A stretch of DNA of 22,905 nucleotides from IMG/VR virus record IMGVR_UViG_2571042690_000020. One strand, 5' to 3'. The notes beneath the pieces are model-generated. The model did not search any database. It saw only the letters and a list, made by a program, of their open reading frames with translations, and was not told the DNA's origin. Positions within the stretch are counted from its first letter, which is position 1. Each line of letters opens with the position of its first letter. Shown here piece after piece: positions 2,702-16,822 of this stretch. A program made the position numbers and the translations under genes. Origin of the DNA: a virus. Taxonomy: Duplodnaviria; Heunggongvirae; Uroviricota; Caudoviricetes.

Positions 2702-3090
2702 GCCGGATAGGCTCCGTGTGGTAACTGAAAATGCGGTCCGTCTTTCAGGGTCTTCCAGTCGCCGCCCCATTCCACCGGAATATTCAGTTCCTGGCTGGCC
2801 TGTCTGAATGCTGCTGCGATTTTTTCGTACAGCGGCCATTCCCATGACACCTGGTTGCCGACATAAGCCACAACATCCACGGCATGCCCTGTGAGATGGC
2901 GACTGTTCATGGTCTGGCTCTTGCCTGTGGTCACGAGCTGCTTCTGACGATAACGACTGCGCAATCCTTCGGTGATACCAAAATCCACTTCCGAGATTTC
3001 CAGCGCCCGTCGGGTCACTTTCACCAGATCAGGATTTACACCCTGCAAATTCTTTTCGCTCCGGCTGCTGAATTTAAATGTGTTGCTCAT
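2698..3090 (-). CDS. Endolysin, peptidase M15 family (L-alanyl-D-glutamate endopeptidase type)
   Basis: 130 aa with an SRHLTGHAVDV zinc-binding block typical of LAS/M15 phage endolysins. AAGGAGAGG RBS; start overlaps the holin stop (ATGA). Confidence 0.8.
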   Translation of the reverse strand: MSNTFKFSSRSEKNLQGVNPDLVKVTRRALEISEVDFGITEGLRSRYRQKQLVTTGKSQTMNSRHLTGHAVDVVAYVGNQVSWEWPLYEKIAAAFRQASQELNIPVEWGGDWKTLKDGPHFQLPHGAYPA

Positions 3091-3410
3091 TCGTTCCTCT
3101 CCTTCACCCTGCGATCAAATATTGCAATAACCTTGTCGCGTGCTTTCTCTGCGCCCATAAAACCGATTGAGGCACCAAAAAACGTCACTGCATCCTCAGG
3201 GATCCCGAAGAAGCGCAGCGACCCGGCCACGGCCATGGCAAGAACGCCGCACGCCAGCGATCCCGTTACGGTCTGAACCAGTGTTCGTCCGTCATAAAGA
3301 CTCATCAGCGCGGAAATGCTGACCGCCGCGCCTACTGCATACACCGTTGGCAGGTGGTCAAAGAGCCACGCAATAACCTGCTCTGTGATCCCTGTTTGAA
3401 TGGTGCTCAC
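3087..3410 (-). CDS. Holin (HP1/P2-region holin family, multi-TM)
   Basis: Hydrophobic segments (AVGAAVSISALM, GSLACGVLAMAVAGSL, FFGASIGFMGA) and a charged C-terminus, immediately upstream of the endolysin. GTG start at 3410 with a GGGGGGAG RBS, just after the X stop; an ATG further in is an alternative. The part of the 3087..3629 ORF overlapping X is rejected. Confidence 0.55.
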   Translation of the reverse strand: MSTIQTGITEQVIAWLFDHLPTVYAVGAAVSISALMSLYDGRTLVQTVTGSLACGVLAMAVAGSLRFFGIPEDAVTFFGASIGFMGAEKARDKVIAIFDRRVKERNE

Positions 3411-3412
3411 TG

Positions 3413-3619
3413 CTACTCCCCCCACAACTGAATCATTTCTCGTTTCTTCTTCTCCGGCTCCGGCATCTCCACTTCCTGCCCGGCGTCCAGAAATACCTGC
3501 TGACAGAGTCCGGGGTTGGCATCCAGCACCTTTTCGGTGACGCCCTGTGTCGTGCCGTAGTACCGGAAACAGAGCGAATCCACGGTGTCGCCTTCCAGTG
3601 CCTTCACTTTCATCAGCAC
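3413..3619 (-). CDS. X: Tail protein X (P2 gpX-like)
   Basis: 68 aa (MLMKVKALEGDTVDSLCFRYYG...) at the P2 gpX position between L and the holin. Confidence 0.8.
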   Translation of the reverse strand: MLMKVKALEGDTVDSLCFRYYGTTQGVTEKVLDANPGLCQQVFLDAGQEVEMPEPEKKKREMIQLWGE

Positions 3620-4116
3620 AGCTCCGCAAACATTCGCGGTCGTCCCAGAATGTCAGAGATGGCCCAGCTCACATCGCGCCACAAATCCGATGTCTGTATA
3701 TCCAGTGCGTCCGCCCGGCGGTCGCCCTTGTCCGTTGTGTCCGCATCGCGGTAACGCTCCAGAATCAGGGCGCGTGTGGCGGTATAAACAGCATTGCGCC
3801 AGTGCCAGAGATTGACGCTTTCTCCGTTAATTACAGGGGCCGGAACATCGGCCAGCGTCTGATAGCCAGCCGCCTGTTGTTCCTGCTGCCATGCTTCCAG
3901 CTCGCGGGTAACGTGTGCTATGGCCCCGGTGGCGGTATGCAGCAGGCGGGAGGTGGTCACGCGGCCCGGCAGTCGTACCGCCAGACGCAGCTCGCGCAGC
4001 ACAATATCCGGCCAGAATGCACCCGCTGAAATACGGGTATCGCCATCATCGGTGTCGGTGATGTCGTCCTCTGCGGGGCCGGGGTTAGTTCTGGCAACCA
4101 TACTCATGGGGTTCAC
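3613..4116 (-). CDS. L: Head completion/stabilisation protein (P2 gpL-like)
   Basis: 167 aa, positioned between terminase endonuclease subunit M and X as in P2/186. Confidence 0.8.
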   Translation of the reverse strand: MNPMSMVARTNPGPAEDDITDTDDGDTRISAGAFWPDIVLRELRLAVRLPGRVTTSRLLHTATGAIAHVTRELEAWQQEQQAAGYQTLADVPAPVINGESVNLWHWRNAVYTATRALILERYRDADTTDKGDRRADALDIQTSDLWRDVSWAISDILGRPRMFAELC

Positions 4117-11181: not shown

Positions 11182-11679
11182 ATGAACCCAATAACACTAC
11201 AAATCATCAGCAATGCTATTGTTCTGCTTGGCGTTTTGGTTGCCATTGGAACCATTATCTACAATGTGCGTACCGCAAAAAAAACTCAAACGGCCAACTT
11301 TCTTTTTGAGAGTCGGCAAGATATGCAATATATAGAGTCATTGCATACCCTGAAACAAGTGCATCGTTCAGGCAAATCATTTCGTTCTTATGTTTTTCCT
11401 TGTGATGGTTGCATAATAACAGATGAAGAAATGGCCGAGCGTCGAAAATTTCAATATATTTTAAATTTTTACGAGCGAGTTGCTGTAAGTATTCGTGAAG
11501 GTATTTATGATGAAAAAATGATAAAAAGAACATCTTACACAACAGTTGTAGAGACATATGATATTGCCGAGCCATTAATTAAAGCAATCAGAGAAAGCAT
11601 TAATTCGGATACTACATATCAAGAATTCGAATGGTTAGTAAGAAGATGGAAAGCTAATCCTTTACGGAAAAACAAATAA
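11182..11679 (+). CDS. Hypothetical membrane-anchored protein (N-terminal TM helix, ~140-aa soluble domain)
   Basis: 165-aa ORF. Residues 5-27 are hydrophobic (TLQIISNAIVLLGVLVAIGTIIY). Markedly AT-rich coding sequence compared with the flanking phage genes. Confidence 0.6.
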   Translation: MNPITLQIISNAIVLLGVLVAIGTIIYNVRTAKKTQTANFLFESRQDMQYIESLHTLKQVHRSGKSFRSYVFPCDGCIITDEEMAERRKFQYILNFYERVAVSIREGIYDEKMIKRTSYTTVVETYDIAEPLIKAIRESINSDTTYQEFEWLVRRWKANPLRKNK

Positions 11680-11718
11680 TGTTTTACCCTTTAATTTACA
11701 AGTAACACAGGGGGAAGT

Positions 11719-12561
11719 GTGACACAGAATCCGTTTTCATTTTATGACTTTTTGGGCTATCTAATTCCAGGTGGGTTATTCCTGTTTATCCTTTTTTTGT
11801 TTTCTATTGAAATTAACCCTGTTTATATAGAAGGTATTCTTAACCATATCCTGAAATATAAAGAAATAATAAGTGTATTTATATATGTGGTATTAATCGT
11901 TCTATCATATATTTCAGGTCACTTCATATCTATTCTATCATCCTGTTTAATTGAAAAATACATGAACAGTAAACTTGGGTATCCTTCAATTTATCTGTTT
12001 TCTAAAAGAAGCTCCCTGAAAATAAAACGACATAATACTAAGTTCAGTATAGTTAATTTTATTCGTGGAGTTTTTTTATTTCCTGTATCAGCTTTTGATA
12101 AAGCAGAACATCATAAAACCACACTGCATTCTATACTTATTAAAGTCTTTTGGCCGCAAATACGAGATGGTTATATAAATGTTTTTTCTGTATCTACGCT
12201 ATATCGACGTAAGGGCTTGAGGGGCGATCTTTTTCGCCTTGCTTATCATTATGTGTATGAACATTCTAAAAATCATCAGGTGAAAATGCAAAACTATGTT
12301 GCTTTGTATGGTTTTTGTAGAAACATTACATTTGTTTTTCTCGCTTCAGTCTGGTTGCTTATGTTCCTGCTCCTTCTATCCTTTTTAATAGATATAAATA
12401 TCAGACTGTTACCTTTTTGTTTTCTTCTCTTGTTTTGTATTGCTGCATCCCGAGTATTTTATTATGGTTTTGTTAAGTATTATCGCCGCTATTCTCTTGA
12501 GGTTTTAATGGCATTTGCGGTACTTCAGCACGATAAAAAAACTTCGGCAATTTCATCATGA
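11719..12561 (+). CDS. Hypothetical polytopic inner-membrane protein (4-5 predicted TM segments)
   Basis: 280-aa ORF with a GTG start and AGGGGGA RBS, 39 nt after the preceding gene. Several long hydrophobic segments (FLGYLIPGGLFLFILFLF, IISVFIYVVLIVLSYISGHFISIL, ITFVFLASVWLLMFLLLLSFLI, LLPFCFLLLFCIAASRVFYYGF). Very AT-rich. Confidence 0.6.
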   Translation: MTQNPFSFYDFLGYLIPGGLFLFILFLFSIEINPVYIEGILNHILKYKEIISVFIYVVLIVLSYISGHFISILSSCLIEKYMNSKLGYPSIYLFSKRSSLKIKRHNTKFSIVNFIRGVFLFPVSAFDKAEHHKTTLHSILIKVFWPQIRDGYINVFSVSTLYRRKGLRGDLFRLAYHYVYEHSKNHQVKMQNYVALYGFCRNITFVFLASVWLLMFLLLLSFLIDINIRLLPFCFLLLFCIAASRVFYYGFVKYYRRYSLEVLMAFAVLQHDKKTSAISS

Positions 12562-12571
12562 TTTGAAACAT

Positions 12572-12597
12572 TGGCACCCTGTTAGCAAGGGTGCCAG
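12572..12597. terminator. Hairpin between convergent membrane operon and parR (putative terminator)
   Basis: GGCACCCT-GTTAGCA-AGGGTGCC, an 8-bp stem lying between the two convergent 3' ends. No strong T-run. Confidence 0.35.
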
Positions 12598-12644
12598 AAT
12601 GATGTGTTGGTCTGTATTTTATTAGTTCACATACAATTATCAGA

Positions 12645-12959
12645 TTATTCTGGGAATAAGGTCTGAATATTCTTTTTTATTTTATAAAAATTGCATTCAA
12701 CTCCGCTAGGCTGATTATCCTGGTATGTTTCCTTGATGCTAACGGTATTGAAGGGGAGGTTGTCCTCTGGCCATTCGGCCATCCAGTAGGCAAATGCTGG
12801 GTTGCGCTTTATGAGCGCTAGCCCAGCCAGAAAGGCCGCGCGTTGCGCGCGGCTGCGTTCGGAGGCTGGCAGGCTATCGAGGTAATTGCACGCCTCCTGT
12901 TCACTCTTGACGGCGGCGGGCTTCAGATAGAAACTTATCCGTCTGGTTGGTGTCGTCAT
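12645..12959 (-). CDS. parR: ParR-like centromere-binding protein (ribbon-helix-helix adaptor)
   Basis: Internal ATG at 12959 with an AAGGAG RBS, 5 nt after the parM stop. The N-terminus (RISFYLKPAAVKSEQEACNYLDSLPASERSRAQRAAFLAGLAL) resembles plasmid R1 ParR as I recall it. Confidence 0.6.
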   Translation of the reverse strand: MTTPTRRISFYLKPAAVKSEQEACNYLDSLPASERSRAQRAAFLAGLALIKRNPAFAYWMAEWPEDNLPFNTVSIKETYQDNQPSGVECNFYKIKKNIQTLFPE

Positions 12960-12963
12960 TGGT

Positions 12964-13923
12964 TTACTCCTTGTCCATTGCGTACAGCCCATTAACCAGA
13001 GCAAACTGTGGCACCCCGTCCGCGATGAAAGTCGCATTAACTCCGCAGACTTCGCGGATAGCGGGTGCCACAATCTCCGCCCCTCCACCGACAACCATCA
13101 CCCGCCCGTAACCCGAAAAAACCGCCAGCGCGCGGATCACGCGTTGTTTCAGTGTTTCTTCCTTTTCACGAATAACCGCCATCAGGCTGGCGTAATGCGC
13201 GTCATTGTGGATGTGCTGGCGCAGCCAGGCTTCATCATGGCGATGTTCGATAATGGTATTGGCGATGTGGTGACTGGTGCGCATACCGTTAGTGGCCATC
13301 ACCGACAGTACGGCATCGGCCATCAGGGAAACGCCTACGTGTGGATCGCAAAACACCTGGCTGATACCTGCCAGTTGCCCTTGAACCTTTGCCACATCCA
13401 GCGTGGTTCCGCCTAAATCCACAATCAGCAGGGATTCAAACGGACTCATGTCAGCCAGTGCTTTAAAGCCAGCCGGAATGGATTCAGGCATAACCCGCAC
13501 GTTACGGATAGTGAATGCTTCGCCGTTCTGGTATTCCACCGGGCGCATAACGTTCGCTTTTTTGCGGTTGATGTTGGCCATGTCCGGCTGTGCGTTTGTG
13601 TCGAAATACTCGCTCAGTGGCAGGGTGACAACCACATCCACCTCCTGTGGCGTGATGCCTGATTTGACCAGCGCGTGATGAATGGCGATTACATTCACAT
13701 CGCTGTACTGGTATTGCGTGTCGGTCGTCTGGACAAAGCGATCGCTAACCGGATCAAAACCATAGCGCACGCCATCAAGCATGTAGTTCGCGGGCTGCAT
13801 GCCACCGAACGGCGCAGACCATTCCGACTTGAAGCTGTTCGGGCTGATGGCGTTGCGGCGTTCGCCATTCTCAGTCCATGCCAGCTTGATGTTGGTGGAG
13901 CCGTCGTCGATACAAATTTTCAT
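12964..13923 (-). CDS. parM: ParM/StbA-family actin-like segregation ATPase
   Basis: 319 aa. The N-terminus (MKICIDDGSTNIKLAW...ISPNSFKSEW...YSDVNVIAIHHAL...VDVVVTLPL) tracks my recollection of plasmid R1 ParM closely, including the phosphate-binding DDGSTN block. Confidence 0.8.
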   Translation of the reverse strand: MKICIDDGSTNIKLAWTENGERRNAISPNSFKSEWSAPFGGMQPANYMLDGVRYGFDPVSDRFVQTTDTQYQYSDVNVIAIHHALVKSGITPQEVDVVVTLPLSEYFDTNAQPDMANINRKKANVMRPVEYQNGEAFTIRNVRVMPESIPAGFKALADMSPFESLLIVDLGGTTLDVAKVQGQLAGISQVFCDPHVGVSLMADAVLSVMATNGMRTSHHIANTIIEHRHDEAWLRQHIHNDAHYASLMAVIREKEETLKQRVIRALAVFSGYGRVMVVGGGAEIVAPAIREVCGVNATFIADGVPQFALVNGLYAMDKE

Positions 13924-13952
13924 GTCGCTTTTCCTTATGTTGATTAATTAAT

Positions 13953-13993
13953 CGTTTACGGGATTCTGAAATCCCGTTTTTGCCTGTTTTGTG
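13953..13993. repeat. Copy 1 of ~41-bp element with internal dyad (ACGGGATTCTGAAATCCCGT)
   Basis: Lies in the A-parM intergenic region, directly upstream of the parM start. About 85% identical to copy 2. Confidence 0.5.
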
Positions 13994-13999
13994 CGCGCT

Positions 14000-16822
14000 T
14001 CATATATCGCTGCGCGTTTTTTGCTCATTTACGGGATTCGTAAGTCCCGTTTCTGTCTGTTTTTTGTTTCCACTGGTCAGGCCACCCCGCAGCAGGTCTG
14101 CTTTGCGGCTGGCGCGTTCAGTGGTTTCACTGATTCTCTGTGCGTGCTCTGCGTCGCGGATGGCGCGCAGCATGTCAGAAAGCACGGTAACGGGTGTTTT
14201 CATGGTGTTCTGGCCCTGCTGAAGTGTGGATGCCAGGCGTGCGGCGGCTTCAGGGTCTGATGCCCCCAGCTGTGCCAGATAGCTGGCGACCGGGTTATGG
14301 CGGATCTCCGTGCTGCTTACGCCATGATTACGGCTCAGGCGCTGCCAGAGCTGCGTGATTCGGCTGTCCGGGCGGGTATCCGGTTTGCGTACAATTTCAA
14401 ATCCCTGCGGTGCAATGATGCTGCCGTCAACGTACAGACTGCCGCCCCGTAACAGGTGCTGCATCTGTTGTTCACCGATATGCAGGCCGAGAGATTCAGC
14501 AGACTCCCGCCATTCTTTAGCGAGTAATTCGTGGTTATCAGGCAAAGGCCGCTGCTGTTTGCGGCTCTGTGTCCAGCTCTGCATTTCATCGCTGCTGTTT
14601 TTTGCCTGTTTGTCACGAAGCGAACGCATCAGCGCCCGGCGTTCGTGTCGTTTCAGTGAGCGCATCCATTCGTTCACTTCAACGCCGTCAGGGAGCTGCG
14701 GCCACGGTGCTGGCCGTTCTTCCGGCTGTTCTGTCCCGTTGTTGTCCGTTTCCTGTACACGGGGACAGTTATTGCCACGAGTCCAAGGGGCGGCAGGGCC
14801 GCCCTGAAGGTCAAAACCATTTTCGCGGGCGCTGTCTTCCGCTTCCGGTTTACGTCTTACCAGCTTCCAGTTATCCGGATGCGTGCACACACGGGAGGAT
14901 TCCCCGATGAGTGGTGACCAGATCCCGTAAATCTGTACGCTCTGTTCGCCGTAATCGTTCAGCTCATCTGCGAGGTCGTAGGCGGTGCGAATCAGGTAGT
15001 CCTTGCGTGGAACAAGCACGCCACCCTGTTTTTCAATGTAGGTGGCAAAACACCCGGCATCGGCGGCAGCGAGTACCGCATCCATTGCATCATCTTTCAG
15101 CCGTTGCGGGCCTTCCGGATTGCGTGCCATCTGGCTGGCAAGGCGGCGCAGTTCACGCCACACCTGACGGGAGGGGATGCCAAAGAACTGGAACTGACGG
15201 ACCCGGTGAAGGCGCGCCCAGCCGATGGCGCGCTCCACGCTCTCGGCCATTGATTTTCCGGTTTCGTGGTCCACGCGTGGCTTGCCCGTTTTCGGGTCGA
15301 TGCCATCCACGGCGCGGCTGTCCAGGTTCTTTCCGATGTAGGTGGCGATGTAGCTGGTTGGCGTGCCTTTTGAGCCGTCGACATACTCCACCTTAAAGCG
15401 CGGAGTAATATCATTGCCCAGCTCGTGGCGGTCTTCCTGAATGGCAATATCGCGGGTATGGGACACAATGGTGTCGATTTCTTCCGGATGTGCAAAGACC
15501 ATCATATGCCAGTGCACGGTGCCGTCATGATGAGGCTCCACCGTGCGGATGCCATACCAGCGCAGGCCGTCGCGGTTCAGTTTTTTGCGGACCGCCGCAA
15601 AAAACGTGTTAACCAGGTAATCGCTGGAGTCGCGCATTGTGGCCCCGTTCCATTTGGGATTCGGATGACCGTTCTCCGTTGTGGCGTGGTATTTTGACGG
15701 GCAGGTGACAGTCAGAAACACCGCTTTGTCGCCACGGGCTTCGGCCAGAAGTTCCAGTCCCTTCATGGTGGCCATCATTTCTGCCTTACGGTGAACCGGG
15801 TTACTTACTCCCGCGTAATACACTGTCTCGAGATCAATCGTGAACCCGTCTTCATTTTCCAGCATGAAACTTTTCAGGAAATCGCGTGTTTTCTCGCGCT
15901 GTGCGCGAAACTCGCTTAACGCGTCCTGGCTCAGATAGGGTGATGTTTTTCTGGAAACCAGACAGGCGGCGCGGAGTTGTTCTTCTCTCCACTCGCAACG
16001 TAACAGCCACAGTTTGCGTTTCCACCATTCCGCACAGGTCAGGCGAAGGATTGCGCCCGGCAGCAGCTCCGTGTCCGGTTCGTTCCTCCGGTCTTTGTCT
16101 GTTGTCAGTGCGTCATAATGTGGAGGCATGGCGTGCAGGTGTAACGCCATGCGGGCCAGCATCTGATACGCCTTCAGGGTTACATCCATGGTCAGCTCGC
16201 CATCGGTCGCGCCAAAGCCATCGCAGAGTTTTTCGAAGGTGCTGCTGAACATCGCCGCCGTCATGGTGGCCAGCGTCTGTATCTGGTGTTTGTTGAGCTG
16301 CGGCAGGTAAAGCAAATCGTCCAGGCGTTCGCGTCCGGCAAGGGAGCGATAACCCGGTGTCAGCCAGCGTCCGTCAGTGCTATCCAGACGTTCGAATATT
16401 TTGCGCAGGGTTCCGCGTGCATAGCGTTCCGCCTGCCAGCTCTTTTTGCCTTTCCGGCGATCGGCTTCCTGTTTTTTGCGCAGGAAGGAGAGGTGGCGAA
16501 TAAGCGGATCGCGCAGATAGGACGGCAGCAGGCGCAGCGAGGCCATGGCTTCATCCACCGCGCCACGTGCCTGTTTTCTGGCGTCTCCTGCCAGTGTGAT
16601 GGTTTTGTCCTGTTTTTCCTGTGCGTCCAGGCTTTTATTAATCAGGTTGCCCAGCGGCGTGGCTGAGAACGCCGCATCAGCCATTTCCTGGCGGCGCTCG
16701 TTCTCTGCCCGGTAGGCATCCAGCCAGGAGGAAAGCGCGGATTCAGGAGCGGGGATCCCCGTTCCTTCACGCCCCACTGCGTGGCGCGGTTGTTGCCAGT
16801 CCCTGAGGTACTCTGCCGTCAT
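14000..16822 (-). CDS. A: Replication initiation endonuclease (P2 gpA-like HUH rolling-circle protein)
   Basis: 940-aa ORF with an HUH-type metal motif (TVHWHMMVFAH) and a YIATYIGKN catalytic-tyrosine block, downstream of the early operon as in P2/186. Confidence 0.85.
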   Translation of the reverse strand: MTAEYLRDWQQPRHAVGREGTGIPAPESALSSWLDAYRAENERRQEMADAAFSATPLGNLINKSLDAQEKQDKTITLAGDARKQARGAVDEAMASLRLLPSYLRDPLIRHLSFLRKKQEADRRKGKKSWQAERYARGTLRKIFERLDSTDGRWLTPGYRSLAGRERLDDLLYLPQLNKHQIQTLATMTAAMFSSTFEKLCDGFGATDGELTMDVTLKAYQMLARMALHLHAMPPHYDALTTDKDRRNEPDTELLPGAILRLTCAEWWKRKLWLLRCEWREEQLRAACLVSRKTSPYLSQDALSEFRAQREKTRDFLKSFMLENEDGFTIDLETVYYAGVSNPVHRKAEMMATMKGLELLAEARGDKAVFLTVTCPSKYHATTENGHPNPKWNGATMRDSSDYLVNTFFAAVRKKLNRDGLRWYGIRTVEPHHDGTVHWHMMVFAHPEEIDTIVSHTRDIAIQEDRHELGNDITPRFKVEYVDGSKGTPTSYIATYIGKNLDSRAVDGIDPKTGKPRVDHETGKSMAESVERAIGWARLHRVRQFQFFGIPSRQVWRELRRLASQMARNPEGPQRLKDDAMDAVLAAADAGCFATYIEKQGGVLVPRKDYLIRTAYDLADELNDYGEQSVQIYGIWSPLIGESSRVCTHPDNWKLVRRKPEAEDSARENGFDLQGGPAAPWTRGNNCPRVQETDNNGTEQPEERPAPWPQLPDGVEVNEWMRSLKRHERRALMRSLRDKQAKNSSDEMQSWTQSRKQQRPLPDNHELLAKEWRESAESLGLHIGEQQMQHLLRGGSLYVDGSIIAPQGFEIVRKPDTRPDSRITQLWQRLSRNHGVSSTEIRHNPVASYLAQLGASDPEAAARLASTLQQGQNTMKTPVTVLSDMLRAIRDAEHAQRISETTERASRKADLLRGGLTSGNKKQTETGLTNPVNEQKTRSDI
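14027..14066. repeat. Copy 2 of ~41-bp element, inside the 3' end of gene A
   Basis: CATTTACGGGATTCGTAAGTCCCGTTTCTGTCTGTTTTTTG, overlapping the last ~22 codons of A. Confidence 0.5.

Follow-up and report, generated by a model that had tools for sequence, protein, structure and literature searches.

Plasmids are where ParMRC, the textbook example of a DNA segregation machine of the actin-like kind, has been studied. The parC site of plasmid R1, a type II site, was reportedly described by Dam and Gerdes in 1994. R1 parC spans 159 bp and comprises two sets of five 11-bp iterons, which flank a 39-bp core containing the par promoter; approximately one ParR dimer is bound per iteron, and the DNA of the site is intrinsically curved (Hoischen et al. 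2008, PMC2241845). A type II centromere located upstream of parM is well known. The present analysis concerns a variant of this arrangement in a stretch of viral DNA of 22,905 nucleotides (IMG/VR virus record IMGVR_UViG_2571042690_000020), the whole of which is referred to below as the window. In this variant, the region upstream of parM consists of two composite units, each bearing a dyad; it has no recognisable promoter, is partly coding, and is carried by an integrating phage. On the basis of sequence, and with a probability that we would place at roughly 0.7, the ~115-bp region at positions 13952-14066 is predicted to be the cis-acting, parC-like centromere of an R1-family ParMR system, bound by ParR.

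The region and its immediate surroundings, in the order in which they are read toward parM on the minus (sense) strand, contain the following features.

14025..14066, minus strand: copy 1, the distal 42-bp unit, within the last ~22 codons of gene A; sense strand CAAAAAACAGACAGAAACGGGACTTACGAATCCCGTAAATGA
14031..14050, unstranded: dyad of copy 1 (ACGGGA..TCCCGT, with a GGG-N10-CCC core), 20 nt; plus strand ACGGGATTCGTAAGTCCCGT
13994..14024, minus strand: spacer of 31 bp between the units, holding the stop codon of gene A (14000-14002) and without a recognisable sigma-70 promoter
13952..13993, minus strand: copy 2, the proximal 42-bp unit, within the 76-bp intergenic gap between A and parM; sense strand CACAAAACAGGCAAAAACGGGATTTCAGAATCCCGTAAACGA
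13958..13977, unstranded: dyad of copy 2 (ACGGGATT..AATCCCGT), 20 nt, starting 53-55 nt upstream of the parM ATG; plus strand ACGGGATTCTGAAATCCCGT
13940..13948, minus strand: ATTAATCAA box, between copy 2 and the parM Shine-Dalgarno sequence AAGGA (13932-13936)

A repeat search of the window returned the two units as the members of a direct repeat (13952-13993 and 14025-14066), each 42 nt in length, with identical bases at 35 of 42 positions (83%). The copies are separated by 73 bp from start to start, with 31 bp between them. A sequence-only reading of the same DNA had described a duplicated dyad element of ~41 bp, with ~85% identity and copies 74 bp apart; the element is real, and these figures were off by only one base or two percent. 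The ACGGGAT..ATCCCGT inverted repeat, which had been ascribed to each copy, was confirmed as the pair of 20-nt dyads. The gene placement was found to be correct as well: one copy occupies the gap that separates A from parM, and the final codons of A contain the other. In a sliding comparison of 26-nt segments, an offset of 73 gave 22 matches out of 26, versus 17 at the 95th percentile of shuffled sequences. The dyad pattern is unique within the 22.9-kb window, even when three mismatches are allowed (chance expectation, 0.01 matches). A-tract periodicity of 10-11 bp attains its maximum for the whole window at 13916-14062, and the phasing of AAAY in the Escherichia coli type (R=0.80) was matched by only 6 of 1000 shuffles; the R1-like site is phased likewise. 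The proximal copy ends 28 nt from the ATG of parM, which is then followed by parR.

The likeness to R1 parC extends from the layout of the site to the proteins that serve it. In both cases the element is located directly upstream of parM, its repeats are arranged in two blocks, and the DNA is rich in A-tracts, whose helical phasing, seen here in the E. coli type, would make it curved. An R1-like stbAB locus that was examined has the R1 layout with A-rich AAAACMMCC iterons, and its homologous block positions are also ~72-73 bp apart. The ParM proteins are homologous, and the cognate ParR likewise belongs to PF10784, with 36-40% identity to the StbB protein of IncF plasmids across the N-terminal 63-73 amino acids (aa), i.e., the ribbon-helix-helix (RHH) region. 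In contrast to R1 parC, whose core promoter is repressed by ParR, the window element is without a recognisable promoter; moreover, its distal unit is situated inside the upstream open reading frame (ORF), and the element that hosts it is an integrating phage.

Similar mixtures of likeness and difference were apparent for other described partition sites. The parC1 and parC2 sites of plasmid pB171 are arrays of many short repeats, which also serve the neighbouring type I locus. Like the window element, they lie upstream of the par genes, and their ParR is of the same fold family, although the window ParR matches the pB171 ParR structure (2JD3) only weakly (residues 6-57, E=0.012); the motif and the number of units differ. 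The parC of the Staphylococcus plasmid pSK41 was reportedly described by Schumacher et al. in 2007 as four 20-bp repeats bound by a ParR dimer-of-dimers. As in the window, a few longer composite repeats are present instead of many 11-bp iterons, and ParR is an RHH protein; the ParM and ParR sequences and the motif are, however, unrelated, and in pSK41 the repeats adjoin one another and extend over the promoter. Phage-borne partition with a cis-acting centromere is found in plasmid prophages, namely P1/P7 (parS), N15 (sop) and D6, which is P1-like with a StbA-type ParM. Unlike these prophages, which need partition during lysogeny, the window phage carries an integrase, and the places at which the region occurs in E. 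coli genomes are chromosomal in 1422 cases and on a plasmid in 2.

The whole window represents an integrated P88-like prophage of E. coli, which is P2-like and assigned to Xuanwuvirus (Peduoviridae). Positions 12500-14500 match phage vB_EcoM-569R5 at 100% identity, and P88, 520873, Shae_phiSM and others at 96-99%. In the deposited record the phage is integrated beside dmsABC, and it carries genes for an integrase, the C repressor and cox. The genes adjoining the element are all encoded on the minus strand, as follows.

14000..16822, minus strand: gene A, P2-type rolling-circle replication initiator (Phage_GPA, 940 aa), whose frame runs through copy 1; context, outside the element
12964..13923, minus strand: parM, actin-like segregation ATPase of the R1 StbA/ParM family, 319 aa (PF06406, 2.7e-82; PF21523, 1.1e-68; phrog_691), with StbA_N and ParM C-terminal domains
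12645..12959, minus strand: parR, predicted RHH centromere-binding adaptor, 104 aa, MTTPTRRISFYLKP...LFPE (Plasmid_stab_B, PF10784, 1.9e-28)

ParM homologues with 54-62% identity were again located downstream of a P2-type gene A in prophages of Hafnia, Plesiomonas, Serratia and Enterobacter, and the gene order A-parM-parR is shared by the P2-like prophages of Hafnia, Plesiomonas and Serratia. The closest of these, the ParM proteins of Hafnia and Plesiomonas, are both 62% identical to that of the window. In Plesiomonas, two 26-nt copies (GCGGGACAACAAAAACCCGAAATAGC and GCGGGACAACACTAACCCACAATGGC, 21/26 matches) are positioned at 72-bp spacing, on either side of the A stop codon. In Hafnia, GGGATTGAGGAAACCCAAAAACGAAC and GGGTTCATTAAATCCCAGAAACGCAC occur at 73-bp spacing, and their 17 matches out of 26 represent the top offset of that region; here, an ORF of 167 aa separates A from parM, and the distal copy is contained in this ORF. 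Alignment of the E. coli, Hafnia and Plesiomonas types revealed two occurrences of an invariant GGGA..AA.CCC, together with an ATTAAT.AA box, within flanks that have diverged. The GGG-N10-CCC core is invariant across all three types, as are the ATTAAT.AA columns of the ATTAATCAA box, which would make a poor -10 element.

Within the E. coli type, two GGG-N10-CCY sites 72-74 bp apart were observed in 132 of 143 distinct upstream sequences. Matches to CGGGAYTYNNRAATCCCGTAAA in IMG/VR were followed by a parM start either 53 or 125-126 nt downstream in all of the 112 evaluable cases. Of 5426 complete E. coli genomes, 1288 contained the 141-bp region, which was of full length in 1283 of them. One of the five genomes with a partial match was inspected, and proved to contain a decayed prophage in which A is frameshifted and parM and parR are truncated. 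Relatives at intermediate divergence were almost absent from viral-contig searches with the Hafnia and Plesiomonas ParM proteins; a scan of genome contigs returned near-identical copies only, and a metagenome scan returned mostly the E. coli type and distant plasmid-like systems. No phage with the A 3' end of the window but without a par module was present in the phage collection.

As judged from these comparisons, the repeat pair travels with parM and not with A. In one variant of the E. coli type (L070), similarity to the window is lost at 14586 and returns exactly at 14064, from where it continues to 12905, a boundary that was seen in 11 of 14 phage records. Since 14064 marks the left edge of copy 1 and 12905 corresponds to parR codon 18, the co-inherited module comprises both copies, parM and the N-terminus of ParR with its beta-strand. 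The copies stay with parM when a different ORF precedes them, as in Hafnia and L070, which indicates that the element belongs to parM rather than to A.

The segment of L070 that replaces window positions 14065-14585 (the last ~520 bp of A) is non-homologous and 779 bp in length (L070 positions 3082-3859). It contains an apparent separate ORF of ~150 codons with a CxxC...CxxC motif, which reads through copy 1 and ends at the same stop codon as the window A gene. The parR gene is itself a mosaic, its first 18-22 codons being identical to those of P88 parR and the remainder resembling it only distantly (56% identity overall), alongside ParM proteins that are 99% identical. At least two C-terminal alleles of ParR circulate on one parC-parM backbone, and the N..LFPE C-terminal tail occurs in both.

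The junction at the left edge of copy 1 bears on another proposal of the sequence-only reading, i.e., that the repeats mark a recombination scar where the par module joined the replication gene. A mosaic junction was indeed found at this edge (14064), and to that extent the proposal holds. A neutral duplication or scar without a function of its own could further be reconciled with the tail of A encoded by copy 1, which tolerates non-synonymous changes, and with a variant (L022) that has lost 73 bp through recombination between the copies. A mere scar is nevertheless very unlikely, given that both copies and their 72-73-bp spacing have been kept in three genera whose flanks cannot be aligned, that the layout persists in 132 of the 143 distinct E. 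coli-type sequences, and that the region is full length in 1283 of 1288 genomes.

The L022 sequence (IMG/VR; positions ~3930-3970, equivalent to window 13994-14028) is a natural single-copy variant with a clean 73-bp deletion between the copies, in which gene A is fused in frame to the proximal copy and ends in ...KQTKTGFKNPVTD followed by a stop codon. Two possible coding features of the region were considered and rejected. A mini-ORF of 26 codons (MSKKRAAIYEARTKQAKTGFQNPVND), starting from ~14027, reads copy 2 in the frame that A uses for copy 1; it was rejected as a gene because variants in which the A6 run of the spacer is A5 or A7 (L033, L077/L080) frameshift it. The shared frame of the mini-ORF and A is better explained by the single-copy L022, where A ends in the proximal copy. 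A programmed -1 frameshift just before copy 1 (C AAA AAA C, a 7-nt spacer and a hairpin) was rejected as well: the shifted frame stops after 11 codons and adds no domain, and neither Hafnia nor Plesiomonas has the motif.

When the comparison was widened to other ParMR systems, every related system examined was found to carry its repeats directly upstream of parM, and five types of ParR beta-strand paired with five repeat motifs, as listed below.

TRR[IV]SFYL (window, Hafnia, Plesiomonas): GGG-N10-CCC dyads
NRK[IC]SFY (Serratia, Enterobacter type, L365): ATTTTTCT / AGAAAAAT
RRKIQFYI (L356, L359, L360, L096): TCTCA / TGAGA
RRKI[TL]FY (L175, L177, L367): TTCTC
RRTIAFKL (R1-like L172): AAAACMMCC

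This co-variation of motif and beta-strand is the strongest indirect argument that ParR reads the repeats upstream of parM, and by extension the dyad units are predicted to be ParR sites. In the plasmid-like and metagenomic relatives (47-52% ParM identity), two repeat blocks surround a good sigma-70 promoter directly upstream of parM, exemplified by TTTTCA-16-TATAAT in the plasmid relative L177. The same data bear on the alternative that the element serves as an operator for a regulator other than ParR, a DNA-binding protein of the phage or of the host that would govern how far transcription of A continues into parMR. Dimeric DNA-binding proteins in general typically recognise conserved dyads of this form, in which the arms are at a fixed distance (GGG-N10-CCC) and the centre varies, and, in a region without a recognisable promoter, control of read-through would be one way of setting ParMR levels. 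However, parM, the ParR beta-strand and the element are inherited as a single block next to genes that vary, the type of repeat shifts with the type of ParR across families, and no other regulator gene is consistently linked to the element; we therefore regard such an operator as unlikely.

In the Serratia/Enterobacter-type prophages L090, L093 and L094, the sequence ~130 bp upstream of parM contains AAAAACGGGAACGA, followed by a long inverted repeat (GAAATAGAAAAATG ... CATTTTTCTATTTC). The inverted repeat encloses a small G+C hairpin, the stem of which is specific to the locus (GCCGC/GCGGC, AGCCG/CGGCT or TAGCC/GGCTA). Direct repeats of the form ATGAC(A)CAAAAA..TTAAAC.GG are located 93 bp apart in these prophages. 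The left flank of copy 2 in the window is matched exactly by the first 17 nt (AACAGGCAAAAACGGGA).

Several observations weigh against interpretation of the region as a parC-like centromere. R1 parC is composed of ten direct 11-bp iterons, whereas here only two 42-bp composite units with GGG-N10-CCC dyads are present. Helical phasing of A-tracts and AAAY, a property of R1 parC although not a strict requirement, reaches significance in the E. coli type and in neither Hafnia nor Plesiomonas, and the layout differs in the Serratia/Enterobacter lineage, where the repeats occur at a 93-bp offset together with the long inverted repeat. Common descent links the three lineages in which the dyads occur, such that their agreement testifies to constraint on the region and not to the identity of the factor involved. 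A consensus scan, which a weak or activator-dependent promoter could escape, detected no sigma-70 promoter on the minus strand between 13924 and 14100, nor in Plesiomonas. The chromosomal location of 1422 of the 1424 E. coli places gives no evident reason for the phage to need a centromere. Finally, no paper was found that discusses par in P88-like phages, and the GenBank records annotate the proteins only.

The lack of a recognisable promoter between or around the units means that the operator, or autoregulatory, half of the parC concept is not supported. Inspection by eye, in addition to the scan, gave nothing convincing; a CAGAAT in the loop of copy 2 is without a -35 partner. The sequence-only reading had proposed that the repeats constitute the combined centromere and operator of the ParMR operon. 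Its centromere part is favoured by the linkage to parM, the layout across genera and the co-variation with ParR; its operator part is less secure, as no promoter was found. On the sense strand the dyad hairpins are followed by AAAC or AAAT and not by a U-run, and no terminator was seen between A and parM in a consensus scan. Since neither a promoter near the units nor a sense-strand terminator between A and parM is evident, parMR is probably the tail of the early operon, i.e., it would be transcribed as the distal end of the cox-to-A unit.

On the opposite strand, the dyads have a different appearance, which raises the alternative of tandem intrinsic terminators that would stop plus-strand transcripts, originating in the convergent cargo genes at 11182-12561 or within parMR, before their antisense entry into A. 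Both dyads form 8-bp hairpins on this strand, followed by T-rich tails (TTTTTGCC and TTCTGTCTGTTTTTT), as in Rho-independent terminators; both were flagged by the consensus scan, with folding energies of -11.4 and -10.2 kcal/mol. The A-rich stretch that precedes each stem on the sense strand is mostly retained in E. coli-type variants, two antisense terminator-like hairpins, with different stems, are also present upstream of parM in the Serratia type, and no convincing terminator for plus-strand transcripts was seen at 12561-12645. Unlike ordinary Rho-independent terminators, however, the hairpins are antisense to the local genes, and the feature is not conserved in Hafnia and Plesiomonas. Plesiomonas has two dyads, yet a terminator-like site on neither strand; in Hafnia an A-run follows the dyad on the sense strand, such that a hairpin followed by a T-run is found on neither strand. 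P88 and other relatives carry the same repeats despite having different genes downstream of parR, and the T-rich tail simply reflects the AAAAAC motif ahead of the dyad, read on the other strand. Terminators as the explanation of the element are thus unlikely, although a secondary terminator role is possible in the E. coli type.

Folding was also considered in the sense direction, where the dyads could act as RNA hairpins in the early transcript covering A and parM, with an effect on its processing or stability or on the translation of parM. The corresponding hairpins have energies of -11.6 and -9.0 kcal/mol (z about -3.4 versus shuffles), and the proximal one precedes the ribosome-binding site of parM by ~30 nt. 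Against such a role, none of the more than 25 dyad variants contained a compensatory double change, all changes being single transitions. Those in copy 1 mostly break sense-strand pairing and those in copy 2 mostly keep it as G.U, which amounts to no consistent strand signal. In Hafnia and Plesiomonas the stem is reduced to 3-4 bp (GGG/CCC) around a 10-nt loop, and the Hafnia copy 1 folds no better than shuffled sequence (z=-0.06). The dyad arms are conserved as sequence and not as pairing, and a function at the RNA level appears quite improbable.

Replication control, a further suggestion of the sequence-only reading, fared poorly. The element adjoins gene A and lies partly inside it, and the origins of P2-type phages are located within gene A; the repeats might accordingly have represented accessory sites for the A initiator or part of an origin. 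The nick sequence of the P2 A protein (GCGCCTCGG/AGTCCTGTCAA) does not occur in the repeats, however, and the annotated nick site of P2 (nt 29892) aligns instead to ~14765-14802, some 700 bp upstream of them. This alignment is close at the DNA level (GCGGC..GCCGC.CCT.GGA.TC.TG.CAATAACTGT). In addition, another ORF separates A from the repeats in Hafnia and L070. A replication element at 13952-14066 is therefore most improbable.

The origin homologue at ~14765-14802 is on the minus strand within gene A and reads GCGGCCCTGCCGCCCCTTGGACTCGTGGCAATAACTGT, versus GCGGCATCGCCGCGCCTCGGAGTCCTGTCAATAACTGT in P2. Within the ~1.2 kb of the A 3' region that was searched (13924-15100), this segment was the only DNA similarity to Fels-2, SopEPhi, RE2010 and Klebsiella P2-like phages.

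According to the parC reading, the two 42-bp units, seven helical turns apart, would be presented on the same face of a curved DNA segment. RHH dimers of ParR would bind both units, most probably via the conserved CGGGA-N8-TCCCG / GGG-N10-CCC dyads together with the A-tract motifs beside them. The resultant ParR-DNA complex would capture or cap the ends of ParM filaments, the growth of which would push circular phage genomes apart. If parMR is indeed the tail of the early operon, the system would presumably be active when that operon is on, i.e., upon infection or induction, and silent in the repressed, integrated prophage. As a further possibility, ParR bound within the transcription unit might throttle read-through into parMR, thereby providing feedback without an operator-promoter. 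Whichever ORF is located upstream, its translated tail includes the distal unit; this ORF is A in the window, and L070 and Hafnia have different ones.

The role of ParMR in such a phage could be the segregation of replicating or not-yet-integrated circles, or else occasional plasmid-like carriage. More specifically, a promoter-less and partly coding centromere may allow an integrating P2-like phage to use ParMR from its early lytic operon, in order to move or separate replicating or newly circularised genomes during infection, establishment of lysogeny or induction, and not for maintenance as a plasmid prophage; we offer this proposal tentatively and consider it doubtful at present. If true, with ParMR expressed from an early lytic operon, type II partition would serve a purpose other than plasmid inheritance. 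In any event, a complete and evidently constrained parC-like site, together with parM and parR, is fixed in a lineage of P2-like prophages that is present in about a quarter of complete E. coli genomes (1288 of 5426), almost always in the chromosome, and a defined cis site provides a handle on what ParMR does for an integrating phage. The predicted site, read in this manner, would show that the internal promoter of a parC can be lost and that the site can extend into coding sequence. A centromere of this kind matters both for the automated annotation of centromeres and for the prediction of incompatibility between prophages and IncF-type plasmids.

One complete P88-like genome (L379, NZ_CP148288.1) is deposited as a circular 'plasmid' of 34,461 bp, in which the integrase gene is retained alongside cox, A and parMR. 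Either an excised circle or true plasmid carriage could account for this form.

Downstream of the par genes, two cargo genes on the plus strand (11182-12561) converge on parR and encode a DUF4760 protein of 165 aa and a protein of 280 aa (phrog_12528). They occupy the position of the P2 old/tin hotspot, where other genes are found in P88. The 280-aa protein gave a weak Csx27-like hit (E=1e-5), the sole hit from a PADLOC scan of the cargo genes. Between the cargo genes and parR, a hairpin (GGCACCCT..AGGGTGCC, ~12590-12612) is present, without a clear T-run on either strand.

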